A stretch of DNA of 64,000 nucleotides from Parcubacteria group bacterium GW2011_GWC1_36_108 (lineage in GTDB: Bacteria > Patescibacteriota > Minisyncoccia > Moranbacterales > GWC2-37-73): NCBI GenBank assembly GCA_000991245.1, contig LBRD01000003.1, positions 6,734 to 70,733 on the forward strand. The letters are read 5' to 3'. This document shows positions 41,445 to 56,926 of this stretch, piece by piece. The notes under the pieces are model-generated. The model did no database searches, was not told the DNA's origin, and worked only from the letters and a program-made list of their open reading frames with translations. Numbering within the stretch: position 1 is the stretch's first letter; every line of letters starts with the position of its first letter. The position numbers and the translations under genes are program-made.

Positions 41445-42263
41445 TTAAAATGGGCTTTTGATGTTTCTAAGCATTGGATTAGTTACTTTCGTGTATATCT
41501 GTGTTGTTCTTATATTAGCATGTCCAAGCAATTCTTGTACATATCGCACATCAACCCCATTTTCAAGCAGATGAGTGGCAAAAGAATGTCTAAGTGAGTG
41601 AAAAGTGGCTTCTTTTTGAACCTCAGCTTTTTGCAGAGCATTTTCAAAAACTTTTTGTGCGCTACGCTCATCTAATTTTCCTCCGCGATTACTGGCAAAA
41701 ACATAATCATTTAAATCTCTAAGCGCAATCATATTAAGCAATTGTGGTTTCAATTTTTCTGAAATTACACTTATTCTATCCTTGTTTCCTTTAGCTCCTT
41801 TTATATGAATTGTTAATTCGTCTAAATTGATGTCTTTAATCTTTAAATTTATTGCTTCACTGACGCGAAAACCTGCGCCATAGGAAAGGGAAATGAGCAG
41901 CTTATGTTTCGGATTGCTTATGGAATCAATCATTCTTCCAATCTCATCCCTAGAAAGTACTACGGGCAATTTGCTGGCAGTTTTGGCAAATTTGATATCA
42001 ATTTCAATATTATTTTTAAAAACTTCTCTATAAAAGTATTTAATAGCTTGAAGATGCACATTCATCGTCTGTGAGGATTGTCCACGAGCTTGTTTTTCTA
42101 ATAAATATTTCTTAATTACTTCAATTTCCGGTTCGCGCTTAATAATTTTAATGTATTTGAAATATTCATTCAGACAAGACAAATAACTCTCAATTGTCCT
42201 TGGACTGTAATTTCGAAGTTTCAGTTCGTTTTTGATTTTTTCCAGCAACTCTTGGAGATTCAT
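41445..42263 (-). CDS. Xer-type tyrosine site-specific recombinase (272 aa; lacks the integron-integrase additional domain)
   Basis: Catalytic residues. R in LSYGAGFRVSEAINLKIKDI. KGAKGNKDRISVISEKL. HSLRHSFATHLLENGVDVRYVQELLGHANIRTTQIYTKV (H-x-x-R ... Y). Only ~45 aa lie between patch III and HSLRHSF, so there is no room for the IntI-specific domain. Transcribed divergently from the downstream cassette-like array. Confidence 0.85.
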   Translation of the reverse strand: MNLQELLEKIKNELKLRNYSPRTIESYLSCLNEYFKYIKIIKREPEIEVIKKYLLEKQARGQSSQTMNVHLQAIKYFYREVFKNNIEIDIKFAKTASKLPVVLSRDEIGRMIDSISNPKHKLLISLSYGAGFRVSEAINLKIKDINLDELTIHIKGAKGNKDRISVISEKLKPQLLNMIALRDLNDYVFASNRGGKLDERSAQKVFENALQKAEVQKEATFHSLRHSFATHLLENGVDVRYVQELLGHANIRTTQIYTKVTNPMLRNIKSPF

Positions 42264-42375
42264 AAAAAATATGCTATATTTTATTCATAAATCAGTGATG
42301 GTTGTATTATACTAAAAGTTCGCATAACCTGCAACTTTCAACATACTATCAAACACTAAGTTCGTATATAAAGGA

Positions 42376-42384
42376 GTTATGTGC
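42376..42384 (+). promoter_or_regulatory. attI-like recombination core site G^TTATGTGC, ~110 bp upstream of the recombinase start codon
   Basis: GTTATGTGC is the exact reverse complement of the inverse core GCACATAAC (43157-43165) of the first attC-like element. Same G^TT context as the three downstream elements. Confidence 0.55.
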
Positions 42385-42489
42385 AATAGCCAGAAATACC
42401 CCATTATCTTTTAGAATTTTTTTTGGCGAAATGCAGGGTCGAATAACTCAAGGTAAAATTAATATTAATTAAATTAAACAACAAACATT

Positions 42490-43110
42490 ATGAAAGAAAT
42501 GTATCAACCATCGCAAGCTGAAATAAAAAAAGCAGAAGATGTCATGACTGAAGAACAAAAACTTGAGAGCATGACGAGAGAAAATGCTGTTCACGCAGGG
42601 GAAGCATCTTTCAGTGATTATGATGAAACAAAAAAAATTAACCCAGAAAAAACCCATAAAATTGAGATAGAACTGCAAGCCACAATTTATAAGGAATTCA
42701 ATGATCGAGTTAAAGAATTAGTTAAATCATATACAGAAAGCCTATCTGCCCTAAAAAGAGAAGCTAACTATGAAGACGACGAGCAGCTTGATGAGATAGA
42801 TAAAAAAATAAATGAATTAACAAAAAAATTATTTGAAGACTTTGGAGAACAGTATATGCGCTTAAGCAAGGTTGTAATAGACACCACAATAACAATATCA
42901 GATTTTGTAATTCATAAAAAAGACATGTTATTACAGCAAGAAGAAGATCAACAAAAAAGACAGGAGTTAGAAGCCAGCATACTTAAAAGCGAAAATGCAA
43001 AAATACAAAGAGCGGAAGCTGTCATAGCAAATCTTGAAAAATATATAAACGATGTTAAAAACAATTTTGAAAAAGGTGCTGAAGAATTAATGAAAGAAAT
43101 AAAGAAATAA
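42490..43110 (+). CDS. Cassette 1 cargo: hypothetical acidic coiled-coil protein
   Basis: 206 aa, E/K-rich, predicted coiled coil. No recognisable domain. Confidence 0.5.
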   Translation: MKEMYQPSQAEIKKAEDVMTEEQKLESMTRENAVHAGEASFSDYDETKKINPEKTHKIEIELQATIYKEFNDRVKELVKSYTESLSALKREANYEDDEQLDEIDKKINELTKKLFEDFGEQYMRLSKVVIDTTITISDFVIHKKDMLLQQEEDQQKRQELEASILKSENAKIQRAEAVIANLEKYINDVKNNFEKGAEELMKEIKK

Positions 43111-43156
43111 GAAAAATTCGCCAAAAAAAATTAAACACAAATAAGGAATGGGTATT

Positions 43157-43364
43157 TCTAGCTACAGCACATAACAGCCCATATCTGGCTACAGGAAATT
43201 GACGCTAGTAAAAACAATATTGAGTGTCAATTTCCCTCCGCCCAAATTTTCATCCCTTGGTTTGATGAAGGTTTAGGCGGAGTGCATTAAAAAAAATATC
43301 AGCCTGTAATTAAAGTTTATCCTGCTAAACGGGATGAAAACTTCAGATATGGGCGACGTTGTGC
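43157..43364 (+). other. attC-like imperfect palindromic recombination element 1 (inverse core GCACATAAC ... core acG^TTGTGCG)
   Basis: 5' cccatatctgg pairs with 3' ccagatatggg. Internal hairpin gaaattgac/gtcaatttc. Conserved cccaaat and aacttcagat. The 3' GTTGTGCG is complementary to the next element's inverse core CGCACAAC. Confidence 0.6.
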
Positions 43365-43527
43365 GAAATAAATTTTTTATCTATACTAATATTAGCGTTT
43401 AGTGATGCTAGTAAGGACAGAAAATTTGATTTTTTAATTATTTTAAGAGGGGTAATATGTGTTTTTCTGCTCTTTGGGGAGCAGAAAAAATTAATTCATT
43501 TGTAATTTATTTTTAAGCAATAAAACT

Positions 43528-44430
43528 ATGAGCATGGAACAACCAAAATTTAATCCACACAATCCTGAATATAAAAAAGTTGAGGATTTACCAAAAGAAG
43601 AACAAGTAAATTATTCTGACGTTGAAGGTGGTTTTGTTCAAAAAGAAGCAGCTGAGTTTTATAAAATAGCGCAGGACATTGAAAGAATTACAGAGCGCGA
43701 AAGTGGCTCAATGAGTGCTGACAAATTCATGATGCTTCTCGCGCAAGATGAGGACACGAAAAGAGAATGGGATGCGCTTACTGGAAAACAAAAGCTCAAT
43801 GTTCTCATGGGAAATCCTAAAAAAGAGGACATGGATTTATCGACTTGGAACACGAATAGGTCTGCGATAGAGAAAACTCTTGAAGAACATCCTGAACTTA
43901 GAGATAACAAGAAGCTTATGCTTAAATTGATTATTTCAGGTACCAGTCAGGCACCAGGGCTTGCTTCTGAAAAAGTGCGTAATGATAAGGGTTACGCTTT
44001 GGAGGCGGTAAAACGAAACGGAATGGCTCTCGGGTATCTTCCAGAGGAGATGCAAGACGATGAAGATGTTGTTATGGCAGCAGTTACTACGCGTGGATTA
44101 GCTCTTAGAGAGGCTTCTCCACGATTGCAGAACAATAGAGAAATTGTTGCTGCAGCAATCACCTCAGAGGATGGAGACTTTGGAGACATAATATATGCCT
44201 CCTCAGATGAGGTAATTGAAAGTTTATTGGATGAAAATAACCCAGCCAATAAGGATATTCTTTTAAAAGCGATGAATAACAAGCATGTCAATGATAATTA
44301 TAAAAGAATTGCCAGCTATAATCCAAATCATCCAGACTACCAGGGTGGGCAGTACGATGAAGTTTTCAAGAGATATGAGCATCTGCACATGCGTGAGAAA
44401 ATAGAGAAAATATTGGGAGAGAATTTATAA
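43528..44430 (+). CDS. Cassette 2 cargo: DUF4116 repeat-containing protein
   Basis: KGYALEAVKRNGMALGYLPEEMQDDEDVVMAAVTTRGLALREASPRLQNNREIVAAAITS is two DUF4116-type repeats (VxxNGxALxYaS). 300 aa. Confidence 0.55.
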   Translation: MSMEQPKFNPHNPEYKKVEDLPKEEQVNYSDVEGGFVQKEAAEFYKIAQDIERITERESGSMSADKFMMLLAQDEDTKREWDALTGKQKLNVLMGNPKKEDMDLSTWNTNRSAIEKTLEEHPELRDNKKLMLKLIISGTSQAPGLASEKVRNDKGYALEAVKRNGMALGYLPEEMQDDEDVVMAAVTTRGLALREASPRLQNNREIVAAAITSEDGDFGDIIYASSDEVIESLLDENNPANKDILLKAMNNKHVNDNYKRIASYNPNHPDYQGGQYDEVFKRYEHLHMREKIEKILGENL

Positions 44431-44572
44431 ATATCCAAAAAAATACCAATAAGGAGTCTTGAAAAAAGGAATTCACCCCTTACCCCTCTTCCTTTTTTCA
44501 AGACAAAAATCAAATTTTCTTAGACGCAACACAACGTTTAGTTTAATAAAAAACGAGATAAAAAATTTACAT

Positions 44573-44701
44573 CGCACAACAACTCATATCTGGCTCAAGA
44601 AATTGACACTTTAATGTTTCAGATGAAAGTCAATTTCTTTCGACCCAAATTTTTGTGCAATTACATTGCGCAAAAACTTCAGATATGAGTAACGTTAGCT
44701 G
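44573..44701 (+). other. attC-like element 2 (inverse core CGCACAAC ... core acG^TTAGCTG)
   Basis: The stem is ctcatatctgg / ccagatatgag. Against element 1 the pairs C:G>T:A co-vary. Same internal hairpin gaaattgac/gtcaatttc. 3' core is complementary to element 3's inverse core CAGCTAAC. Confidence 0.6.
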
Positions 44702-44853
44702 AAATATTTTTTTGTCTTTAGTAGTGATTTTTAGATTTGTGATTTAAATAGGGACAGAAAATTTGATTTTTAATTTATTTAAAGAGGGGTAATGGGATAT
44801 TTTTTTGCTCCTGGAATCGCAAAAAAAAGATTTATTTTATTTTTAAAAACAGT

Positions 44854-46431
44854 ATGGAAAAATATTCATTAGAAAATGCCCAGAGCGAAGCTACTGTTAT
44901 TAGAAATGATGCACAAGAGGCAAAACAAAAAAGAGTGCTAGAGGGCGAAAAAAGCGGTGAGCCAAATAGAGATGATTATGACAAAGCCGACAAAGCGATT
45001 GATAGCATTGGCATAAGTAATAGAAAAGAATTTGAGCAAAAACAAGCTGAGATACAAAATAAATATTCAACCGTATTGGAGGGGTCAAAAAATAGCGGTA
45101 ATCAAGAATCTGTAAAATTGCTTCAAGATAACATGAGTCAAGAACTATCTTTTATTGATAGCCAATCAAAGAAATTTAATAGTTTGGAATTTAAAAAGGG
45201 AGAGAAGGCGACGCGTGAATATATTAAAAAAAATAATCTTGATAAATTAGTAGAAGAATTCGGAATTGAGCCAATGAAAGAGGGTTGTCGTCTTTCATTG
45301 GTCATTCCAGCATGCAACGAGGGGCGTGATATTCAAAAAACATTACAATCCTTAGCAGAGCAGAAAGATGAAAATGGTGAAGGTATTAATCCTGATGAAT
45401 TTGAGGTTTTGATTACAGTCAATCAAAAAGAGCAATCAAGCGAGGAAATAAAAAAATCAAATCAACAAACACTTGAAGCAATAGAAGAATTCAAAAGGAA
45501 TAATCCATCTTTAAATATCCATGCTATTTTAAAAGAATTTACGGGCGAGCAAGGTGGTGTTGGTTGGGCAAGAAAATTAGGAAGTGATTTGGTACTTGCA
45601 AGAAGTTTTAGCAGAAATCAAGAATCTGAACGAGAACCGATGTATATTGCAGGAACTGACGCTGATACAATTGTTGGTGAGCAATATGTATCAGAAATTA
45701 TCAAGGCAGCAAATAAGTATGGCGATGCCGCCTATGGCGGTGGTGTTATTTTTGATGAGAATTGGGAAAAAGCATTGGGAAAAAATGCGTCCGACAAGCT
45801 CAGGGTATTCATGGAAGATATGCGTGGATTTCTATTAAAGGCATTAAATGGCGGTTTGCAAGGTGCAAACTTTGCCATACGCGAAGATATCTATGCTCGC
45901 ATGGAAGGAAGCTCAACAAAAGTACATAGCGAAGATGCGGAAAATGATGAACGATTACGAAGTTTGAAAAAAAATGTAACATTTTTAAATTCTGACCATA
46001 TCACTAGCTCTCGTAGGATGATTGGAGAATTCGAAAACTATATTGCTGGAATGCGAGGGCAAAAAATAGACTGGGAAACACGAAACAAGACTTATGGAAA
46101 GTCTGTCCCTACGGGAGAAAAAATTGACTTTACTGAATCCGAGCTTGATGAGGTAATTGCTTACCACAAATTACATAGATCAGATCTAATTATAGACAGT
46201 ATAACTTCGGAAAACGTAAATAATCCAGAGATGGTGCAATTGATTGGAGAAAAATATCATTCTGATTTTAAAGATTTAAAAACTGAAGAATTTAAGACAC
46301 TATTGAATGATAAAAATTTTAGAAAAAAATTACAAATTGAGATAGCATACAATATGTCTAAATTATTTGCATCGAAAATTTCATATACAGAAAAAGATAA
46401 ATTCATCATCGGAATTCCAGAAAAACAATAA
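44854..46431 (+). CDS. Cassette 3 cargo: GT-A-fold (GT2-like) glycosyltransferase-like protein with long acidic N-terminal extension
   Basis: LSLVIPACNEGRDIQKTLQSLAEQ (GT2 N-terminal signature) and YIAGTDADTIVGEQY (DxD). 525 aa, no TM or signal peptide. Confidence 0.5.
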   Translation: MEKYSLENAQSEATVIRNDAQEAKQKRVLEGEKSGEPNRDDYDKADKAIDSIGISNRKEFEQKQAEIQNKYSTVLEGSKNSGNQESVKLLQDNMSQELSFIDSQSKKFNSLEFKKGEKATREYIKKNNLDKLVEEFGIEPMKEGCRLSLVIPACNEGRDIQKTLQSLAEQKDENGEGINPDEFEVLITVNQKEQSSEEIKKSNQQTLEAIEEFKRNNPSLNIHAILKEFTGEQGGVGWARKLGSDLVLARSFSRNQESEREPMYIAGTDADTIVGEQYVSEIIKAANKYGDAAYGGGVIFDENWEKALGKNASDKLRVFMEDMRGFLLKALNGGLQGANFAIREDIYARMEGSSTKVHSEDAENDERLRSLKKNVTFLNSDHITSSRRMIGEFENYIAGMRGQKIDWETRNKTYGKSVPTGEKIDFTESELDEVIAYHKLHRSDLIIDSITSENVNNPEMVQLIGEKYHSDFKDLKTEEFKTLLNDKNFRKKLQIEIAYNMSKLFASKISYTEKDKFIIGIPEKQ

Positions 46432-46551
46432 GGAGTTTTGTTTCAAAAAAATTCACCCCTACCCCTCTTTTTTTGAAACAAAACGAAAAATCAAATTTTC
46501 TTAGTAATAAAACAAAGTTTGTATTAATAAAATAGAAGACAAAAAAATACA

Positions 46552-46744
46552 TCAGCTAACACGGCATATCTGGTTCAGAAATTTTTCACTTTTATACTTT
46601 TTAACGCCAAGGTTTGAAAAATTTCCTCTCCCAAATTGCGCTGTGATATGGCAAAGTTTAGTGATATAATTAAGGCAGGCAGAAAGTTGAAGTTTTAGCC
46701 AATGAATATGGGCGCAACTTCAGATGATGCCGATACGTTGTCGG
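46552..46744 (+). other. attC-like element 3 (inverse core CAGCTAAC ... core acG^TTGTCGG)
   Basis: The stem is cggcatatctgg / cagatGatgccg, with one extra unpaired G in the 3' arm (an extrahelical base). Conserved cccaaatt and aacttcagat. Confidence 0.55.
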
Positions 46745-46806
46745 AAATATCAAAAAACAAATTCATTAATATTTTTTTCAAGCCCTTTTGAAATTCAGGT
46801 AAAGAA

Positions 46807-46835
46807 AAAACCGCACAGTATTCTGTGCGGTCGTA
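46807..46835 (-). terminator. Rho-independent terminator for the minus-strand small ORF
   Basis: aaaaaaccgcacagtattctgtgcggtcg. On the minus strand this reads as an 8-bp-stem hairpin followed by a T-run. Confidence 0.6.
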
Positions 46836-46848
46836 ATTACATTTGTCA

Positions 46849-47019
46849 TTATATCGCCCTCGACATTTCCTGAATTGAAGCCTCGCTTAGTTTGTTGTGT
46901 TCTTTTTCGTCACAAGAAGCTATCAAGTACGTGCACAAGATTATAGTACCACCAAATCCATTGGGAAAATGTTGGGCATGTCTACAGTCATCATCTTCGT
47001 ATGGACAACGCTTTTCCAT
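46849..47019 (-). CDS. Small (56 aa) Cys/His-rich protein, possible zinc ribbon; inverted relative to the array
   Basis: MEKRCPYEDDDCRHAQHFPNGFGGTIILCTYLIASCDEKEH... Preceded by a strong SD GGAGGTGA at 47024-47031. Not in the ORF track (<60 aa). Confidence 0.45.
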   Translation of the reverse strand: MEKRCPYEDDDCRHAQHFPNGFGGTIILCTYLIASCDEKEHNKLSEASIQEMSRAI

Positions 47020-47105
47020 ATTAATCACCTCCTTGTTTAATGTGCTAGTATACTATTATTAGATAAATTATCAATATTGTCAAGCGGGGAAAAACTTCTC
47101 ATACT

Positions 47106-47120
47106 TAGATATGTTGTGCG
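47106..47120 (+). other. Degenerate attC 3' end / terminal core site tagatatG^TTGTGCG
   Basis: Resembles the 3' end of element 1 (cagatatgggcgacGTTGTGCGaaat) with a 7-nt deletion. Followed by the same gcgaaat(t)tttt context. No matching 5' arm found. Confidence 0.35.
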
Positions 47121-47212
47121 AAATTTTTTAAAAATGCTGTGGATAAGTTACGGTGTACGGTTTTTAATTATAATGATACAATATCACTATAATTAAATAA
47201 AGAATAAAACTT

Positions 47213-48040
47213 ATGCAAAATCCAGAAAGTCACATTGCCATTTTCAAGGGAAAAACTATCAGAAAAATCATTTTTCAAAAGGAATGGTGGTTTTCTGTTG
47301 TGGATATTATACAGGTCATAACGGACAGTCCAACTCCAAGGCAATATTGGGGCAAGGTTAAGCAGCGTGAATTTACTGATCTTCAGTTGTCCCCAATTTG
47401 GGTACAACTGAAATTGGAAGCTTCTGATGGCAAAAAATATGAAACAGATTGTGCAAATACAGAAGGAATGCTTCGTATTATTCAATCAATACCATCTCCT
47501 AGGGTTGAACCATTGAAACGTTGGCTAGCAAAGGTTGGTTATGAGCGCATTCAAGAGGTAGAAAACCCAGAACTTGCCAGCAAACGGACAAGATTATTAT
47601 ATAAACTAAAAGGTTATCCTGAAGATTGGATTGAAATGCGTATGCGTGGTATTGCAATTCGCGAAGAATTGACAGATGAATGGCAAAAAAGAGGTGCAAA
47701 ATATAAACAAGATTACGAAATTTTAACTGCAGAAATATCTGAGGCCACATTTGGACTAAAACCAAATGAATATAAAAAAGTAAAAAGTCTGAAGCGTGAA
47801 AATCTTCGTGACCACATGGATGACTTCGAATTAATTTTGACTATGCTGGGCGAGCGAACCACAAAAGAAATTCATAAAACCAAAGATTCCAAAGGTATAC
47901 AAAGATTGAAAGATGATGCTAGACTTGGCGGAGAAGTAGCAGGAACAGCTAGAAAACAAATTGAAAGAAGAATTGGCAGACCAGTGATTTCAGAAAAGAA
48001 TTTTCTGAAATCTAACAATAGGAAGAAAATTAAAAAATAG
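47213..48040 (+). CDS. Bro-N domain protein (phage antirepressor-like)
   Basis: N-terminal IRKIIFQKEWWFSVVDIIQVITDSPTPRQYWGKVKQRE matches the BRO-N family. The C-terminal half is K/E-rich. Confidence 0.65.
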   Translation: MQNPESHIAIFKGKTIRKIIFQKEWWFSVVDIIQVITDSPTPRQYWGKVKQREFTDLQLSPIWVQLKLEASDGKKYETDCANTEGMLRIIQSIPSPRVEPLKRWLAKVGYERIQEVENPELASKRTRLLYKLKGYPEDWIEMRMRGIAIREELTDEWQKRGAKYKQDYEILTAEISEATFGLKPNEYKKVKSLKRENLRDHMDDFELILTMLGERTTKEIHKTKDSKGIQRLKDDARLGGEVAGTARKQIERRIGRPVISEKNFLKSNNRKKIKK

Positions 48041-48077
48041 AATATTTTCAAAAATAATAATAAGCAATCTTAATCTT

Positions 48078-48539
48078 ATGAAATATAAACACACTCAAAT
48101 TGGTTATCTGATGTTAGTTGTTACGTTGGCTGTGGCGGTGCTTTTCGCACGGATTTATATTATGGCTGCTGCCGAGCCACCTTCGGCTGATTCGGGCACA
48201 AATCTTCTTGTTACTGCTGTAATGTTATTAATCCTGTCTGTTCTTGCTTCCTTCGGGTCACTTCAAGTAATTATTGATGAAGAAAATTTAAGAATAAAAT
48301 TTGGCTACGGTATTTTTAGAAAAAAGTTTTCGCTTGATGATATAATTTCTGCTAAAACAGTGAAGAATCATTGGTATTATGGATGGGGAATAAAGATGTG
48401 GCTCTGGCCAAAAATGTGGATTTACAACGTTTCCGGTTTTGATGCGGTTGAAATAAAAATGAAGAATGGTAAAATGTATAGAATAGGCACGGATGAACCT
48501 GGAAAATTAGAACAAGCAATTTTGCAATCAATTAAATAA
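48078..48539 (+). CDS. Hypothetical membrane protein (2 TM helices)
   Basis: 153-aa ORF, hydrophobic N-terminal segments. Confidence 0.4.
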   Translation: MKYKHTQIGYLMLVVTLAVAVLFARIYIMAAAEPPSADSGTNLLVTAVMLLILSVLASFGSLQVIIDEENLRIKFGYGIFRKKFSLDDIISAKTVKNHWYYGWGIKMWLWPKMWIYNVSGFDAVEIKMKNGKMYRIGTDEPGKLEQAILQSIK

Positions 48540-48574
48540 TTAAGACTAGGTAAAAAAATAAAAAAACAAAAACT

Positions 48575-48781
48575 ATGTTTAAACATCACAAAAAGAAAAA
48601 CCCATTCTTGTATCATTTAATATCAGGAATTGGGCTTATTATTTTTTGGCGAGGAATTTGGGGGATTATGGATCTGTATCTCTTTCCCGGAAATCCAACG
48701 CTGAGTCATTCTTTTGCAATTACACTTGGGCTTGTTATTTTATATTTCAATGATTTTTCAATATCAGAGTTGATCAAATAA
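48575..48781 (+). CDS. Hypothetical small membrane protein
   Basis: 68 aa, two hydrophobic helices. Confidence 0.3.
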   Translation: MFKHHKKKNPFLYHLISGIGLIIFWRGIWGIMDLYLFPGNPTLSHSFAITLGLVILYFNDFSISELIK

Positions 48782-49064
48782 GTGGCTCGGTTTTGACTTT
48801 CGGCGCATCTGATTTCTTGCCAATAATTTTGAAGAAGTAATTCCACTTTTGTCCTGTTTTGCAAAGCTCTTTGGTGTCGTTCATTGCGCGCTCAACGATT
48901 TGTTTGTTGTATTGCTTGCAGACACGAAAGATGGAACCGCGTTTGTCATTGGGAACATCAAAATCTTTGATAATTTTAAGTGCCAGCTCTTGCCACTGAT
49001 AAGCAGGAGCTTTTTGAACAACTCTTTTTTTCATTAATTCTCCAAAGGTTTTTAAATCTTTCAT
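48774..49064 (-). CDS. Hypothetical protein
   Basis: 96-aa ORF, basic. No motif recognised. Confidence 0.35.
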   Translation of the reverse strand: MKDLKTFGELMKKRVVQKAPAYQWQELALKIIKDFDVPNDKRGSIFRVCKQYNKQIVERAMNDTKELCKTGQKWNYFFKIIGKKSDAPKVKTEPLI

Positions 49065-49326: not shown

Positions 49327-49866
49327 ATGCAAAAGAAAAAAATATTTGTTGAAATAGAGGTTCCCGGACAGTTAAAAAGACGGTTGGCTCAGATTATAGC
49401 CAAGTGGTCTGATTTGCCGATCAAATGGATGAAAGAGGAAAATTTGCACATCACTGTGTCTTTTGTGGGATATGTTGATGAAAGCGTGCTGCCTGAAATT
49501 TGTCAAAAAGTCAGAGTGGCTGTGGAAAACTTTGAAGCTTTTGATTTGGAATTTGACCGCATCGAACTTGGACCAAATCCTGCTGATCCCAAAACAGTTT
49601 GGCTCACGGGACAGCCTTGCAGTGAGCTTGGCGTGCTTAATGAACAAGTCGAGCGAGCTCTTGGAATGAGACCGGAAACACACAAGGAATTTCGACCGCA
49701 CATCACGCTGGGGCGCATTCGCAAGCTGAAATGGGATGAACTTGTCGAAAAGCCTGAAATTTCTGAGAAAATTAATGTTTCAATGACGGTGGACAGTCTT
49801 TCGATTATGGAAAGTAAAGGCGGGGGAGCGGAATATGTTTCGTTGGAAGAATGTTCGCTGGCGTAA
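49327..49866 (+). CDS. thpR: RNA 2',3'-cyclic phosphodiesterase (2H phosphoesterase, LigT/ThpR family)
   Basis: Two H-x-T/S-x motifs: HITVSF and HITLGR. 179 aa. Confidence 0.8.
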   Translation: MQKKKIFVEIEVPGQLKRRLAQIIAKWSDLPIKWMKEENLHITVSFVGYVDESVLPEICQKVRVAVENFEAFDLEFDRIELGPNPADPKTVWLTGQPCSELGVLNEQVERALGMRPETHKEFRPHITLGRIRKLKWDELVEKPEISEKINVSMTVDSLSIMESKGGGAEYVSLEECSLA

Positions 49867-55705: not shown

Positions 55706-56926
55706 CTATTGGAAGTCTGCGAGGACGTTGCCGGAAATTTTTCGCAGGCGTTTTACAACTTCTTTTATTTTTTCAATGACAGTGTCTAGTTCTTTTTTGG
55801 TGGTATGTTTTCCTAAGGTTAGTCTGAGACTGCCGTGAGCTTGCTCGTGCTTAAGTCCCAAAGAAAGCAAAACGTGCGATGGATCAAGTGCTCCAGATGA
55901 GCAAGCAGAGCCCGTAGAAGCCGCGATGCCGTCTAAATCAAGTGAGAGTATTAATCCCTCTCCTTCAACATCATCAAAACGAAAATTGGCATTATTTGGA
56001 GATCTTTTTTCTAATGAGCCATTAAGATATGATTTAGGGATTTCTTTTAGTACACGTTTGATAAGATAATCTCGCAGCTTGGTTATTTCAATAATATTTT
56101 TTTGCGCGGCTGGAGTTTTGATCATATTAATTGCTTCTCCAAGACCAACTATTGCTGGAACGTTGTGCGTTCCTGCGCGCAGCCTGAATTCTTGATCGCC
56201 GCCATCTTGCACACGTTTAATCAAAGTGCCTTTTCTAACATACAAAAGTCCAATCCCCTTTGGACCATATATTTTGTGCGCCGACATTGAAAGCAAATCA
56301 ACTCCAAGTTCATTCACATCACAATCAAAATAGTTTATAGCTTGAGTGGCGTCAGTATGAAATGAGATGCGCGGCAGCTTGTTTTCTGCTCGCTCAACAT
56401 TTATTTTTTTTAGCAACTTCCCTATTTCAGCAATCGGCTGAACTGTGCCAATTTCATTATTAACGTACATCACGGAAATTAAAATCGTGTTAGGTTTGAT
56501 GGCTGCTTTGATATCTTTAACTGCGATTAAGCCTTCTTTATTGGGCGCAACGAATGTCACATCAGCAAGTCCATCTTTTTCGGCAAATTTGCAAGCATCT
56601 AAAACGCAATGATGTTCAAATTTGCTGGTAATGATATGTGGTTTTTCTCCTGCTTTTCTGGCAATGGAATAATATGAACGCAAACCTCCCTTTACAACAA
56701 GATTATTACTCTCCGTGGCTCCAGAGGTAAAAATTATTTCAGAAGCATTAGCGCGGAAAAAAAGTGCAGCTTTAGCTCTGGCATCATCAACTGCTTCTAA
56801 GGCTTCTTGACCAAAACTATGCACACTCATTGCATTACCAAAATTCTGCGAAAAATATGGCAACATTTTTTCAAACACTTTAGCATCAACTGGAGTTGTG
56901 GCTGCGTAATCTAAATATATTTTCAT
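55706..56926 (-). CDS. Cysteine desulfurase (NifS/IscS class, PLP-dependent)
   Basis: SAHKIYGPKGIGLLYV (PLP-Lys), SGATESNNL, C-terminal SACSSGA (active-site Cys). 406 aa. Confidence 0.9.
   Translation of the reverse strand: MKIYLDYAATTPVDAKVFEKMLPYFSQNFGNAMSVHSFGQEALEAVDDARAKAALFFRANASEIIFTSGATESNNLVVKGGLRSYYSIARKAGEKPHIITSKFEHHCVLDACKFAEKDGLADVTFVAPNKEGLIAVKDIKAAIKPNTILISVMYVNNEIGTVQPIAEIGKLLKKINVERAENKLPRISFHTDATQAINYFDCDVNELGVDLLSMSAHKIYGPKGIGLLYVRKGTLIKRVQDGGDQEFRLRAGTHNVPAIVGLGEAINMIKTPAAQKNIIEITKLRDYLIKRVLKEIPKSYLNGSLEKRSPNNANFRFDDVEGEGLILSLDLDGIAASTGSACSSGALDPSHVLLSLGLKHEQAHGSLRLTLGKHTTKKELDTVIEKIKEVVKRLRKISGNVLADFQ

Follow-up and report, generated by a model that had tools for sequence, protein, structure and literature searches.

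Arrays of gene cassettes were found beside a conserved Xer-type recombinase gene in a Moranbacteria genome and in dozens of its relatives. The window was the whole stretch of DNA analyzed, 64,000 nt of contig LBRD01000003.1 of Parcubacteria group bacterium GW2011_GWC1_36_108. Judged from the sequence comparisons, the array is probably (roughly 75%) a Xer-driven analogue of integrons, i.e., a site-specific gene-cassette platform built on a Xer-type recombinase. This suggests integron logic without an integron integrase, and a second or ancestral route to a gene-capture device. An earlier description of such a system was not found in the literature. The earlier note on this DNA had proposed a cassette-capture system analogous to integrons that uses a Xer-like recombinase, and the related loci favored it, with the Xer protein as the presumed catalyst and single-stranded DNA as the presumed substrate.

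The attI-like site and the three cassettes

All features of the layout given in the earlier note, a minus-strand recombinase gene divergent from three plus-strand genes, were present in the sequence (Table 1). The three co-oriented cassettes carried unrelated genes behind an attI-like site. Crossover at this site fell after G42376, with the R arm belonging to cassette A, and the distance from G42376 to the recombinase start codon was 113 nt (previously estimated as ~110 bp). In a search of 49 genome contigs and 34 metagenome contigs, attI was kept as TTCGCATATAAACGAG^TT in 78 loci, and the sequences diverged directly after GTT; eight of these contigs stopped no more than 30 nt past the G. Between the recombinase gene and attI, a conserved block contained ATTATACT, which reads TATAAT on the recombinase strand and is likely a -10 box. 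Box 1 of this block, AAAAGTTCGCATAACCTGCAACTTT, was an imperfect palindrome resembling an arm, and the block may serve as a binding site for accessory functions or autoregulation.

Table 1. Features of the recombinase locus and its cassette array (positions in the window).
Feature	Position	Strand	Description
Tyrosine recombinase	41445..42263	minus	272 aa; XerA-like ('Cand' Xer subgroup)
Conserved block, recombinase gene to attI	42306..42338	.	conserved columns in 29-locus alignment A3
attI-like core	42358..42387	plus	L arm AAGTTCGTATAT, centre AAAGGAG, R arm TTATGTGCAAT
Cassette A	42377..43358	plus	982 nt; 5′ flank, ORF, 3′ flank
Cassette A ORF	42490-43110	plus	206-aa coiled-coil-like protein
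Cassette A palindrome	43164-43358		195 nt; imperfect
Cassette A terminal element	43164-43358		R″ ACAGCACATAAC 43164-43175; L″ 43177-43188; variable middle; L′ 43343-43354; gac; G43358
Inverted repeat I2 (cassette A)	42376-42401/43150-43175		26 nt, 88%
Cassette B	43359..44694	plus	1336 nt
Cassette B ORF	43528-44430	plus	DUF4116 (Pfam)
Cassette B palindrome	44569-44694		126 nt; imperfect
Cassette B terminal element	44569-44694		R″ ACATCGCACAAC 44569-44580; L″ 44582-44593; L′ 44679-44690; aac; G44694
Inverted repeat I3 (cassette B)	43358-43382/44556-44580		25 nt, 92%
Cassette C	44695..46737	plus	2043 nt
Cassette C ORF	44854-46431	plus	525 aa; Glycos_transf_2 (GT2 domain)
Cassette C palindrome	46549-46737		189 nt; imperfect
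Cassette C terminal element	46549-46737		R″ ACATCAGCTAAC 46549-46560; L″ 46562-46573; L′ ~46720-46732; atac; G46737
Inverted repeat I4 (cassette C)	44694-44718/46536-46560		25 nt, 92%
Array end	46738..47124	plus	R arm TTGTCGGAAAT 46738-46748
Small ORF at array end	46849-47019	minus	promoter-like and terminator-like sites
Fourth, degenerate core	47094-47124	plus	ACTTCTCATAC-TTAGATATG^TTGTGCGAAAT; core pattern match at 47094

Each gene was followed by an imperfect palindrome, described before as ~190 bp long. The left ends of the three elements were ...AAC and the right ends ...ACG^TT, which are the inverse core and 3′ core already recognized. The pairing of the junctions stood as first reported, and the second G was placed at 43358 instead of 43357. 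For the sequence ACGTTNNNNGAAAT, the window had four occurrences where 0.24 were expected, and three of the four were these junctions. In duplex form, attI and every junction consisted of an L arm (ACTTC-NNNN-AT), a 6–9-nt centre and an inverted R arm (TT-NNNN-GAAAT), which is the classical Xer core of an 11-bp arm, a 6–9-nt centre and an inverted 11-bp arm. The centres of attI were invariably AAACGAG-like; those of the attC sites were invariably complementary to their own L″. For the protein of cassette A, no Pfam family above the cut-off was found. No inverse core matching the R arm at the array end was present downstream (no CCGACAAC). The fourth core was absent from the earlier note, and neither a partner L″ nor R″ was seen for it in the sequence.

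Complementarity within cassettes and reassortment between loci

The first 25–26 nt of each cassette were the reverse complement (88–92%) of the sequence at the left of its own terminal palindrome (I2–I4). The 8–9-nt core/inverse-core pairs named earlier were exact, and the complementarity around them reached 25–26 nt. Longer flank repeats were I8 and I14 in cassette B and I1 and I6 in cassette C. The 5′ and 3′ flanks of these two cassettes were complementary over >100 nt, which had been missed before. Complementarity between core and inverse core, on which the first proposal depended, was also present in homologous arrays: 23 of 34 adjacent junction pairs across related loci were complementary at 8/8 positions, whereas shuffling gave 2.7 expected and a maximum of 9 (10,000 shuffles). 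Within single elements, matches occurred in only 2 of 35. The mean duplex energy was -42 kcal/mol with the start of the own cassette and -13.8 with that of the next cassette.

The L stem covaried across about 35 elements. The proportion of paired cells was 95.8%, compared with 63% after shuffling and at most 49% after sliding, and compensatory changes were found in 18 of 23 stem pairs. Watson-Crick pairs filled 480 of 506 stem cells and G.T just five, which argues for a constraint at the DNA level rather than the RNA level. The stem mismatches had no strand bias (five G.T vs. nine A.C), and thus they did not mark the folding strand. The circular-junction site reconstructed for cassette B folded at -87.2 kcal/mol (z -11.4), vs. 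-64.6 kcal/mol (z -6.7) for the native chimeric junction, and L′ of cassette C had one extrahelical G. The sites were unlike ordinary attC: in reconstructed form they were ~360–465 nt long, several times longer than attC, with the crossover within the stem instead of at its base. There was no match to an Rfam family.

The layout recurred upstream of homologous recombinase genes throughout Patescibacteria/CPR. Further core sites were present in 33 of the 55 loci that extended for 1 kb or more beyond attI, and the arrays were short (0–3 further cores by the strict pattern). A total of 61 core-site matches were found in 683 kb, nearly all on the array strand beside the recombinase gene. The cargo ORFs had unrelated functions, and 41 of 47 were on the array strand. 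Duplicated intergenic regions of a paralogous gene family, a possibility named in the earlier note, were ruled out by the unrelated cargo and by the confinement of the cores to the recombinase-adjacent array.

The same three genes were not kept in the related genomes: proteins A, B, and C had no tblastn match in 55 related loci. The non-coding junction segments in these loci were 80–86% identical, e.g., 86% over 258 nt for cassette B in a Wolfebacteria locus (L030) and 83–84% over ~290 nt for cassette C in L016 and L041. The frame of cassette A (5′, ~130 nt; 3′, ~245 nt) enclosed different ORFs in L004 and L047. All 24 contigs with an identical recombinase carried the same A-B-C array; over short time scales this array is thus stable, a counterpoint to the integron-like reading.

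Comparison of close relatives, proposed earlier as a check for cassette shuffling, revealed gain, loss and replacement precisely at the G. Loci L013 and L116 were 99.9–100% identical apart from one 181-nt cassette, present in one and absent in the other, exactly between ...AAACGAG^ and ^TTATACGCC. This cassette opened with AT, not TT, which placed the crossover directly after the G. In L084/L085 and in L009/L010/L100, the recombinase flanks were 96–100% identical and the first cassettes unrelated. L034 and L038 shared a NUDIX cassette (87% identity along all 810 nt) that followed a different first cassette in each, and a related cassette was first in L004 and third in L047.

The recombinase and the proposed exchange

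The recombinase ORF matched Pfam Phage_integrase (1.9e-41) plus a SAM-like domain. It scored 224.5 bits against NCBIfam NF040815 (recomb_XerA_Arch), above the cut-off of 220, and 212.5 against the integron integrase model TIGR02249, below the cut-off of 265 and in two stretches. Among PDB sequences, the best match was IntI4/VchIntIA (2A3V, 160 bits in two stretches); XerA (4A8E) scored 151 bits. The scores against IntI and XerA were roughly equal in both comparisons. In the alignment to VchIntIA, IntI residues 186–240 stood opposite just 12 recombinase residues, and the ~55-residue stretch with the IntI-specific I2 helix was missing. The earlier claim that there is no IntI domain was confirmed by this alignment and by the model comparison. 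Integron integrases need the I2 helix for folded attC sites; its absence here is a counterpoint to the integron-like reading. Homologues were 55–89% identical across the CPR and syntenic with def-fmt. The recombinase thus looks like a conserved, syntenic housekeeping gene, so that its tie to the cassettes rests on adjacency and site resemblance.

In the proposed mechanism, the recombinase gene points away from the conserved attI, and mobile cassettes are stacked behind attI in a single orientation, each with a long imperfect palindrome that frames its cargo ORF. In a cassette that is excised as a circle or is single-stranded, the terminal element and 3′ flank would pair with the cassette's own 5′ end. 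The predicted hairpin would start at its base with a variable outer stem and an invariant 2×2 internal loop in which AA faces CA. An R stem of 8 bp (GTT-NNNN-G / C-NNNN-AAC) would come next, separated by an asymmetric loop from the 12-bp L stem, and the tip would again be variable. This folded single-stranded DNA would be the substrate on the cassette side, and the Xer protein would be the catalyst. The crossover lies solely at the centre/R-arm border, directly 3′ of the top-strand G, since attI and attC centres keep to their own types. Given the usual polarity of tyrosine recombinases, the bottom strand would be cut at AA^C by the R-arm monomer. Only one strand pair would be exchanged and replication would finish the process, as in integron attC × attI recombination and CTX-phage/dif.

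Alternative explanations and the closest known systems

A dual-use Xer/dif module is a possible explanation that we regard as tentative. Here attI would be the chromosome dimer-resolution site beside the only Xer gene, on the model of streptococcal xerS/difSL, and the cassettes small Xer-exploiting elements (IMEX-like) stacked at dif. It overlaps with the cassette platform, and the main difference is what the platform is 'for'. The XerA equivalog cut-off passed by the recombinase, its conservation and def-fmt synteny, the absence of a second tyrosine recombinase from the 64-kb window and the canonical 11/6–9/11 core at every junction fit this explanation. The 'Cand' subgroup has been regarded as Xer-related and as a possible substitute for Xer (Smyshlyaev et al., 2021, PMC8138268). 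The two identical junction copies in a chromosome dimer would also be fully homologous substrates. However, the GC skew did not change sign across the locus, either in the window or in the 12 long loci compared, indicating that the site is not at a skew-defined terminus. Known IMEX are, to our knowledge, phages or islands that bring functions of their own, whereas the cassettes had a single ORF or none.

As with CTX-phage at dif1 (XerC), a host Xer would join a core-mimicking single-stranded hairpin to duplex DNA at a chromosomal site, with replication completing the single strand exchange, and integrations would stack in tandem. IMEX bring their own genes to the terminus dif, whereas here varied single-gene cassettes lie at a site adjoining the recombinase gene, away from the GC-skew switch. 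Archaeal XerA/dif has the closest recombinase family by curated model; it shares with xerS/difSL one recombinase and a core of two inverted arms, and the streptococcal site also adjoins its gene. There, each chromosome has a single site and cassettes are absent, in contrast to the several direct-repeat cores and variable cargo described here.

It is unlikely that these are duplex-only Xer modules of the kind proposed for Acinetobacter pdif, in which cassettes would move by ordinary double-strand recombination between directly repeated cores and the flanking inverted repeats would be passenger half-sites instead of a folded substrate. Duplex DNA is the normal substrate of Xer enzymes, complete duplex cores were present at attI and every junction, all in direct orientation, and the inverse core (ACATC-NNNN-AAC) is arm-like. 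However, the centres differed between sites in length (6–9 nt) and sequence, which would block a complete two-step exchange, for which central-region homology is an established requirement. The centres never moved along with the R side, the left end of the element was an incomplete inverted core where ACTTC of the L arm had no partner, and the complementarity specific to each cassette, which spans 25 to >100 nt and shows compensatory changes, would be left unexplained. The pdif modules likewise have inverted Xer-type half-sites around genes, with one arm conserved and one variable, and occur in different contexts. These plasmid modules use complete XerC/XerD sites whose orientation alternates, whereas the present system combines one recombinase with an attI fixed in the chromosome, and has complete cores in direct repeat as well as the long cassette-specific complementarity.

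The proposed platform shares with integrons a recombinase gene divergent from a co-oriented array, an attI directly upstream of that gene, and cassettes that hold a single ORF or no ORF together with an imperfect palindrome with AAC/GTT cores and crossover at G^TT. In both, a cassette opens with bases that pair with the inverse core of the site it carries itself and not of the preceding site; the structure of the sites and their unpaired features are conserved while sequence varies, and the cargo is unrelated and variable among relatives. A genuine divergent integron, with an IntI-family integrase and ordinary attC sites missed by annotation, would account for these cores and the boundary rule, for VchIntIA as best PDB match and for the NCBI name of the relatives ('site-specific tyrosine recombinase/integron integrase'). 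It is nevertheless very improbable given a recombinase that falls below the integron-integrase cut-off and lacks the I2-containing insertion, the length and in-stem crossover of the sites, and the lack of any Rfam match. The platform further differs from integrons in a Xer-length recombinase that passes the XerA model, a stem running 14 to >100 bp past the R box, junctions that double as full duplex Xer-type cores, long conserved 5′ leaders, short arrays (1–4 cassettes) and a Patescibacteria/CPR host.

Least probable are per-gene invertible switches, whose inverted sites with a private 4–5-nt 'overlap' would let the recombinase flip single genes on or off: an inverted repeat whose core is specific to the cassette does bracket each gene, and similarity to tyrosine DNA invertases was weak (NCBIfam, 61 bits; cut-offs 221–222), but most cargo ORFs point in one direction, the left site has ACATC instead of the arm's ATTTC and no full L arm, and genomes differ by whole-cassette insertion, deletion or replacement at the G, not by inversions.

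The recombinase and the attI-like site

The recombinase of the array reached the cut-off of the NCBIfam XerA equivalog NF040815 (224.5 bits against 220). It was below the cut-offs of the integron-integrase model TIGR02249 (212.5 against 265) and of PRK15417 (132.5 against 435), and both matches fell into two stretches. The best match among solved structures was the Vibrio integron integrase 2A3V (160 bits, in two pieces), with archaeal XerA structures close behind (151 and 147 bits). In the 2A3V alignment, residues 186–240 of IntI, which include the IntI-specific helix, faced 12 residues of the query (184–195). This insertion (the I2 helix, between patch III and box II) was absent, and the HMM comparison that the earlier note had proposed agreed with its description of a Xer-type recombinase without an IntI domain.

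Homologs with 55–89% identity were found throughout Moranbacteria, Parcubacteria, Wolfebacteria, Uhrbacteria and other groups, usually followed by def-fmt. The recombinase fitted the "Cand" subgroup of Xer-related simple recombinases (Smyshlyaev et al., 2021; PMC8138268). No second tyrosine recombinase was found within the 64-kb window, and the viral contigs of IMG/VR contained neither a close relative of the recombinase (the best was 27% identical) nor core sites. The contigs of L007, L008, L018, L024, L031, L034, L038, L051, and L055 were labeled in their records as Bdellovibrionales, Cyanobacteriota or Gammaproteobacteria despite a typical CPR recombinase, attI and array; these labels were probably due to mis-binning or mislabeling of co-assembled MAGs. 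Two contigs of one MAG (Moranbacteria UBA4824; loci L014 and L017) each carried a recombinase gene 75–77% identical to that of the window. The two contigs were 92% identical over the 400 nt that adjoin attI toward the recombinase gene, and their arrays differed. Either two platforms are present within one genome, or two strains were binned together.

Features of the recombinase, the cassette array and the adjoining region
Feature	Position	Strand	Remarks
Tyrosine recombinase, 272 aa	41445–42263	-	Pfam Phage_integrase (1.9e-41) and N-terminal SAM-like domain
Gene A	42490–43110	+	No Pfam family above cut-off
Palindrome after gene A	43164–43358		Imperfect, terminal
Gene B	43528–44430	+	DUF4116
Palindrome after gene B	44569–44694		Imperfect, terminal
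Gene C	44854–46431	+	GT2 domain
Palindrome after gene C	46549–46737		Imperfect, terminal
Fourth core	47094–47124		ACTTCTCATAC-TTAGATATG^TTGTGCGAAAT; degenerate; no recognizable L'' (L stem half) or R'' (inverse core) partners
Bro-N domain gene	47213–48040		Between array and LigT-like gene
Small membrane-like ORF	48078–48539		Between array and LigT-like gene
Small membrane-like ORF	48575–48781		Between array and LigT-like gene
96-aa ORF	48774–49064	-	Between array and LigT-like gene
LigT-like gene	49327–49866

The crossover of the attI-like site (attI) was at G42376, 113 nt from the start codon of the recombinase gene, which is divergent from the array. The consensus ...(A/C)(C/G)TTCGCATATAAACGAG^TT was found upstream of almost every CPR homolog, and attI was conserved in 78 loci. 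The shared sequence ended exactly after GTT, and was followed by NNNN-RAAAT and then by unrelated DNA. An exact 21-mer of attI retrieved 34 further metagenome contigs with almost as many distinct continuations. Eight contigs among the 78 loci broke off within 30 nt beyond the G, which we infer to be the behavior of the assembler at a branch point. At least one further core site (one to three) was present in 33 of the 55 loci with at least 1 kb past attI, an undercount because the strict core pattern was used. The core pattern had 61 matches in 683 kb, nearly all of them on the array strand and adjoining the recombinase gene. Within the window, ACGTTGCCGGAAAT at 55725–55738 was the sole other match to ACGTTNNNNGAAAT; it had neither an inverse core nor an L arm next to it and was judged a chance match.

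A conserved ATTATACT, which reads TATAAT on the recombinase strand, was found at 42306–42338 and in the alignment of 29 recombinase-attI regions, with box 1, an arm-like palindrome, next to it. Ahead of the L arm of attI, a second clade had an inverted copy of that arm, TATACGAA-AACAC-TTCGTATA. We suggest that the TATAAT block, box 1 and the inverted L-arm copy may be accessory binding sites or may take part in autoregulation of the recombinase gene.

Cassette boundaries and predicted folding of the sites

The left ends of the three palindromes were conserved as (A)CATC-NNNN-AAC-A-NNNN-ATATCTGG, and the right ends as ACTTCAGATAT-NNNN-(N)AC-G^TT-NNNN-GAAAT. The three complementary pairs reported in the earlier note were exact, and their real length (26, 25, and 25 nt at 88–92%; inverted repeats I2–I4) went far beyond the one given there. 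In cassettes B and C, extra flank repeats (I1, I6, I8, and I14) took the pairing past 100 nt. The boundary rule of the same note, by which each cassette's own inverse core is complementary to the bases that follow G^TT, also held across the loci. GTT+5 and 5+AAC were exactly complementary at 23 of 34 adjacent junction pairs, compared with 2.7 after shuffling (maximum 9 in 10,000), and several of the non-matching pairs were put down to intermediate elements that had escaped detection. Within one element, the ends were complementary in only 2 of 35 cases. The 60 nt before AAC paired with the start of their own cassette at a mean of -42 kcal/mol, versus -13.8 with the start of the next one.

Elements were found by pairing-based detection, since a strict core regular expression lost attI and variant elements. 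Across 22 reconstructed sites, 95.8% of the cells in the outer and R stems were standard pairs, compared with 63% in shuffled and at most 49% in slid sequences. Compensatory changes were found in 18 of the 23 stem pairs, and the outer 14 pairs had played no part in selecting the sequences. Watson–Crick pairs made up 480 of the 506 stem cells and G.T pairs only 5, a pattern that favors a constraint at the DNA level over an RNA structure. An internal loop of 2 × 2 bases, AA opposite CA, was invariant (22/22). The 12-bp L stem, analyzed separately because MAFFT put its L' side out of register, showed covariation in the first four pairs. An extrahelical G occurred in one element subfamily, including the third element of the window, and the TT of the ACTTC motif was bulged in many elements. 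The reconstructed sites measured 361–465 nt, and their stem ran on beyond the R box. That of cassette B formed a single long hairpin of -87.2 kcal/mol (z -11.4), and the native chimeric junction at this cassette gave -64.6 kcal/mol (z -6.7). The comparison of G.T with A.C mismatches showed no bias toward either folding strand. Rfam searches of the whole window, of the array (at a permissive threshold) and of nine related loci returned nothing relevant, and a tRNA scan of the window found none; thus, neither the elements nor the GC-rich cassettes without ORFs described below are known RNA genes.

When aligned on the G, attI and every junction comprised an L arm ACTTC-NNNN-AT, a center of 6–9 nt ending in (A/C)G, and an R arm TT-NNNN-GAAAT, which is the inverted copy of the arm consensus AYTTC-NNNN-AW. 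With two inverted arms of ~11 bp around a center, each junction qualifies as a classical Xer-type core. Where a true arm would read ATTTC, the inverse core has ACATC, and the left end of the element, being without an ACTTC partner, therefore holds no complete inverted core. The centers varied in length and sequence among sites; those of attI were always AAACGAG-like, and those of the attC sites were always complementary to their own L''. The centers never move, so that exchange takes place solely at the R-arm border.

The established polarity of tyrosine recombinases assigns the strand cut at an arm border. On this basis, the monomer on the R arm would cut the bottom strand at AA^C. A single strand exchange at the R-arm border would follow and be completed by replication, as in the integron and CTX-phage solution. 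From the sequences, we infer that the recombinase would act as the catalyst of this single-strand exchange, with folded single-stranded DNA as the substrate. The covarying stems and the restriction of exchange to the R-arm border support a reaction of the folded bottom strand of attC with duplex attI only indirectly. A circle of cassette B would join ...CAGATATGAGTAACG to TTGTGCGAAATAAATTTTTT, and cassette deletions would join ...TATATAAAGGAG to TTGTGCG... or TTAGCTG...

Cassette mobility and relation to known systems

The mobility of the cassettes was visible among related loci. Across 1505 nt of the recombinase side and 679 nt of the far side, L013 and L116 had 99.9% and 100% identity, respectively, and their sole difference was a 181-nt cassette without an ORF, located in L013 between ...AAACGAG^ and ^TTATACGCC. 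This cassette opens with AT, not TT, which places the crossover immediately after the G. L084 and L085 shared 475 nt of the recombinase side at 99.4% identity (100% over the 400 nt nearest the G) and were unrelated past the G. The 400-nt flanks next to the G were 96–97% identical in L009, L010, and L100, which had three different first cassettes; between L009 and L010, backbone homology returned past arrays of 1.9 and 3.1 kb. A NUDIX cassette of 810 nt was 87% identical in L034 and L038, where the preceding first cassettes were unrelated, and a cassette related to it was the first in L004 and the third in L047. Cassette A of the window had only the 5' ~130 nt and the 3' ~245 nt in common with L004 and L047, the ORF being swapped exactly between the untranslated flanks. 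Non-coding junction segments were 80–86% identical even where the recombinases of the loci were only 62–65% identical.

Proteins A, B, and C had no homolog in the 55 related loci. The constant presence of the same three genes, which the earlier note had named as evidence against a cassette array, was thus not observed; the content varied and the platform was conserved. Cargo elsewhere included CbiM, SET, VTT/DedA, Na/Ca exchanger, nucleotidyltransferase, NUDIX, and SRPBCC proteins, and 41 of 47 cargo ORFs (at least 60 aa) were oriented with the array strand. No variation was found within the strain, as all 24 contigs with an identical recombinase contained A-B-C, which counts against recent activity in this strain.

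Short (80–190 nt), GC-rich cassettes without ORFs were found in these AT-rich genomes, as the first unit after attI in L013, L019, L022, L028, L033, L037, and L043, and as the last unit in L030. Each had its own hairpin, GTT-N5-AAAT-GTCGCTCC...GCTCC-ATTT-N5-AAC, without an Rfam match. The 181-nt unit of L013 that is absent in L116 was one of them.

Integrons are the textbook case of gene capture. The ability of their integrase to act on folded single-stranded sites is believed to have come from one extra helix added to a Xer-like ancestor, and this I2 helix is believed to be required for such sites. The present system has in common with integrons the layout, with attI upstream of a divergent recombinase gene, the boundary rule, the palindromes with ...AAC and G^TT... 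cores, the crossover position, sites conserved in structure but not in sequence, and variable cargo. However, its recombinase is without the I2 domain of IntI, and its sites of 361–465 nt, with a stem past the R box, differ in size and shape from canonical attC (~60–140 nt, with the R box at the stem base). A canonical integron was rejected on these two differences, on the scores of the IntI models and on the lack of an Rfam match. The system works like an integron, yet it falls outside the integron family when this is delimited by IntI and canonical attC.

The proposed action of a Xer enzyme on a hairpin imitating a duplex core has its counterpart in the CTX-phage/dif system. In pdif modules, genes are likewise bracketed by Xer half-sites. 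However, pdif modules have complete XerC/XerD sites at their boundaries, and these sites alternate in orientation, whereas the left ends here are only arm-like (ACATC-N4-AAC and a partial L arm) and the complete cores are all in direct orientation.

The XerA/dif system shares the XerA model, whose cut-off was reached, and inverted arms of ~11 bp around a center, which is 6–8 bp in XerA-type sites and 6–9 nt here. The identification of attI with the terminus dif was rejected because the GC skew had one and the same sign on either side of the locus, for the window as well as for 12 long loci, and only the arrays themselves deviated; attI is thus not at a skew-defined terminus. Instead of the single site of XerA-type systems, several cores occurred per locus. 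XerA-type enzymes need no FtsK, and the pair of junction copies carried by a dimer would be homologous throughout, which makes a dual role possible. We tentatively consider, at somewhat below even odds, that the single conserved Xer of CPR/Patescibacteria is both the housekeeping recombinase and a cassette-capture integrase that works at a site adjoining its own gene and handles folded cassette DNA without I2. The platform would in that case represent the ancestral state of integrons (Xer first, I2 later) or an independent invention of the device, made in a bacterial radiation that is among the largest and least studied.

An inversion switch (inverton or shufflon) was rejected, since 41 of 47 cargo ORFs were co-oriented and the differences between genomes were insertions, deletions, and replacements. 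Duplicated intergenic regions or a MITE-like family were dismissed because the cargo was unrelated and the cores were almost only beside the recombinase gene.

No account of such arrays in CPR turned up in the literature search, which yielded the "Cand" Xer subgroup alone, and this cassette system, a variant on the integron principle, has apparently not been described before. If the reading as a cassette-capture system is true, a Xer-type system that is widespread and follows the cassette logic of integrons without the helix would be a living comparison for the evolutionary gain of that helix, and integron-type capture would exist beyond what current detection tools, built around IntI and canonical attC, can reach. 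CPR bacteria have small genomes and depend on the uptake of foreign DNA, and their gene acquisition is an open question; the locus would be hypervariable and a likely route of gene gain in them. The compact recombinase and its structured site would be a candidate tool. With the site rules (arm consensus, crossover position, and invariant unpaired bases), the hypothesis lends itself to a direct test in a heterologous host.

Distal end of the array and cassette leaders

No matching inverse core was found downstream for the R arm TTGTCGGAAAT that follows G46737. The segment 46738–47113 was read as a decayed unit or as the original distal half of the site. This terminal degenerate unit contained a minus-strand ORF (46849–47019, 56 aa, rich in cysteine and histidine), the only opposite-strand gene of the array region. 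It was accompanied by a promoter-like TTGACA-17-AATAAT at 47083–47055 (11/12 matches, near consensus) and by a clean terminator-like hairpin at 46832–46809. The scan for promoters and terminators gave no excess over shuffled sequences, and thus carries no inference on cassette expression. The region 47213–49064 resembles accessory or mobile DNA that lacks cassette sites, and its gene arrangement was the same in the contigs with an identical recombinase.

The conserved 5' leaders of cassettes B and C (43457–43516 and 44792–44872) contained short upstream ORFs behind a strong Shine–Dalgarno-like AAGAGGGGTAAT. They read MCFSALWGAEKINSFVIYF and MGYFFAPGIAKKRFILFL..., respectively, and the second resembled the way in which the ORF of the first cassette of L009 begins, MFFAPGIAKKMITLFF. 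Such an upstream ORF may be a conserved leader peptide or a translational control element common to many cassettes.
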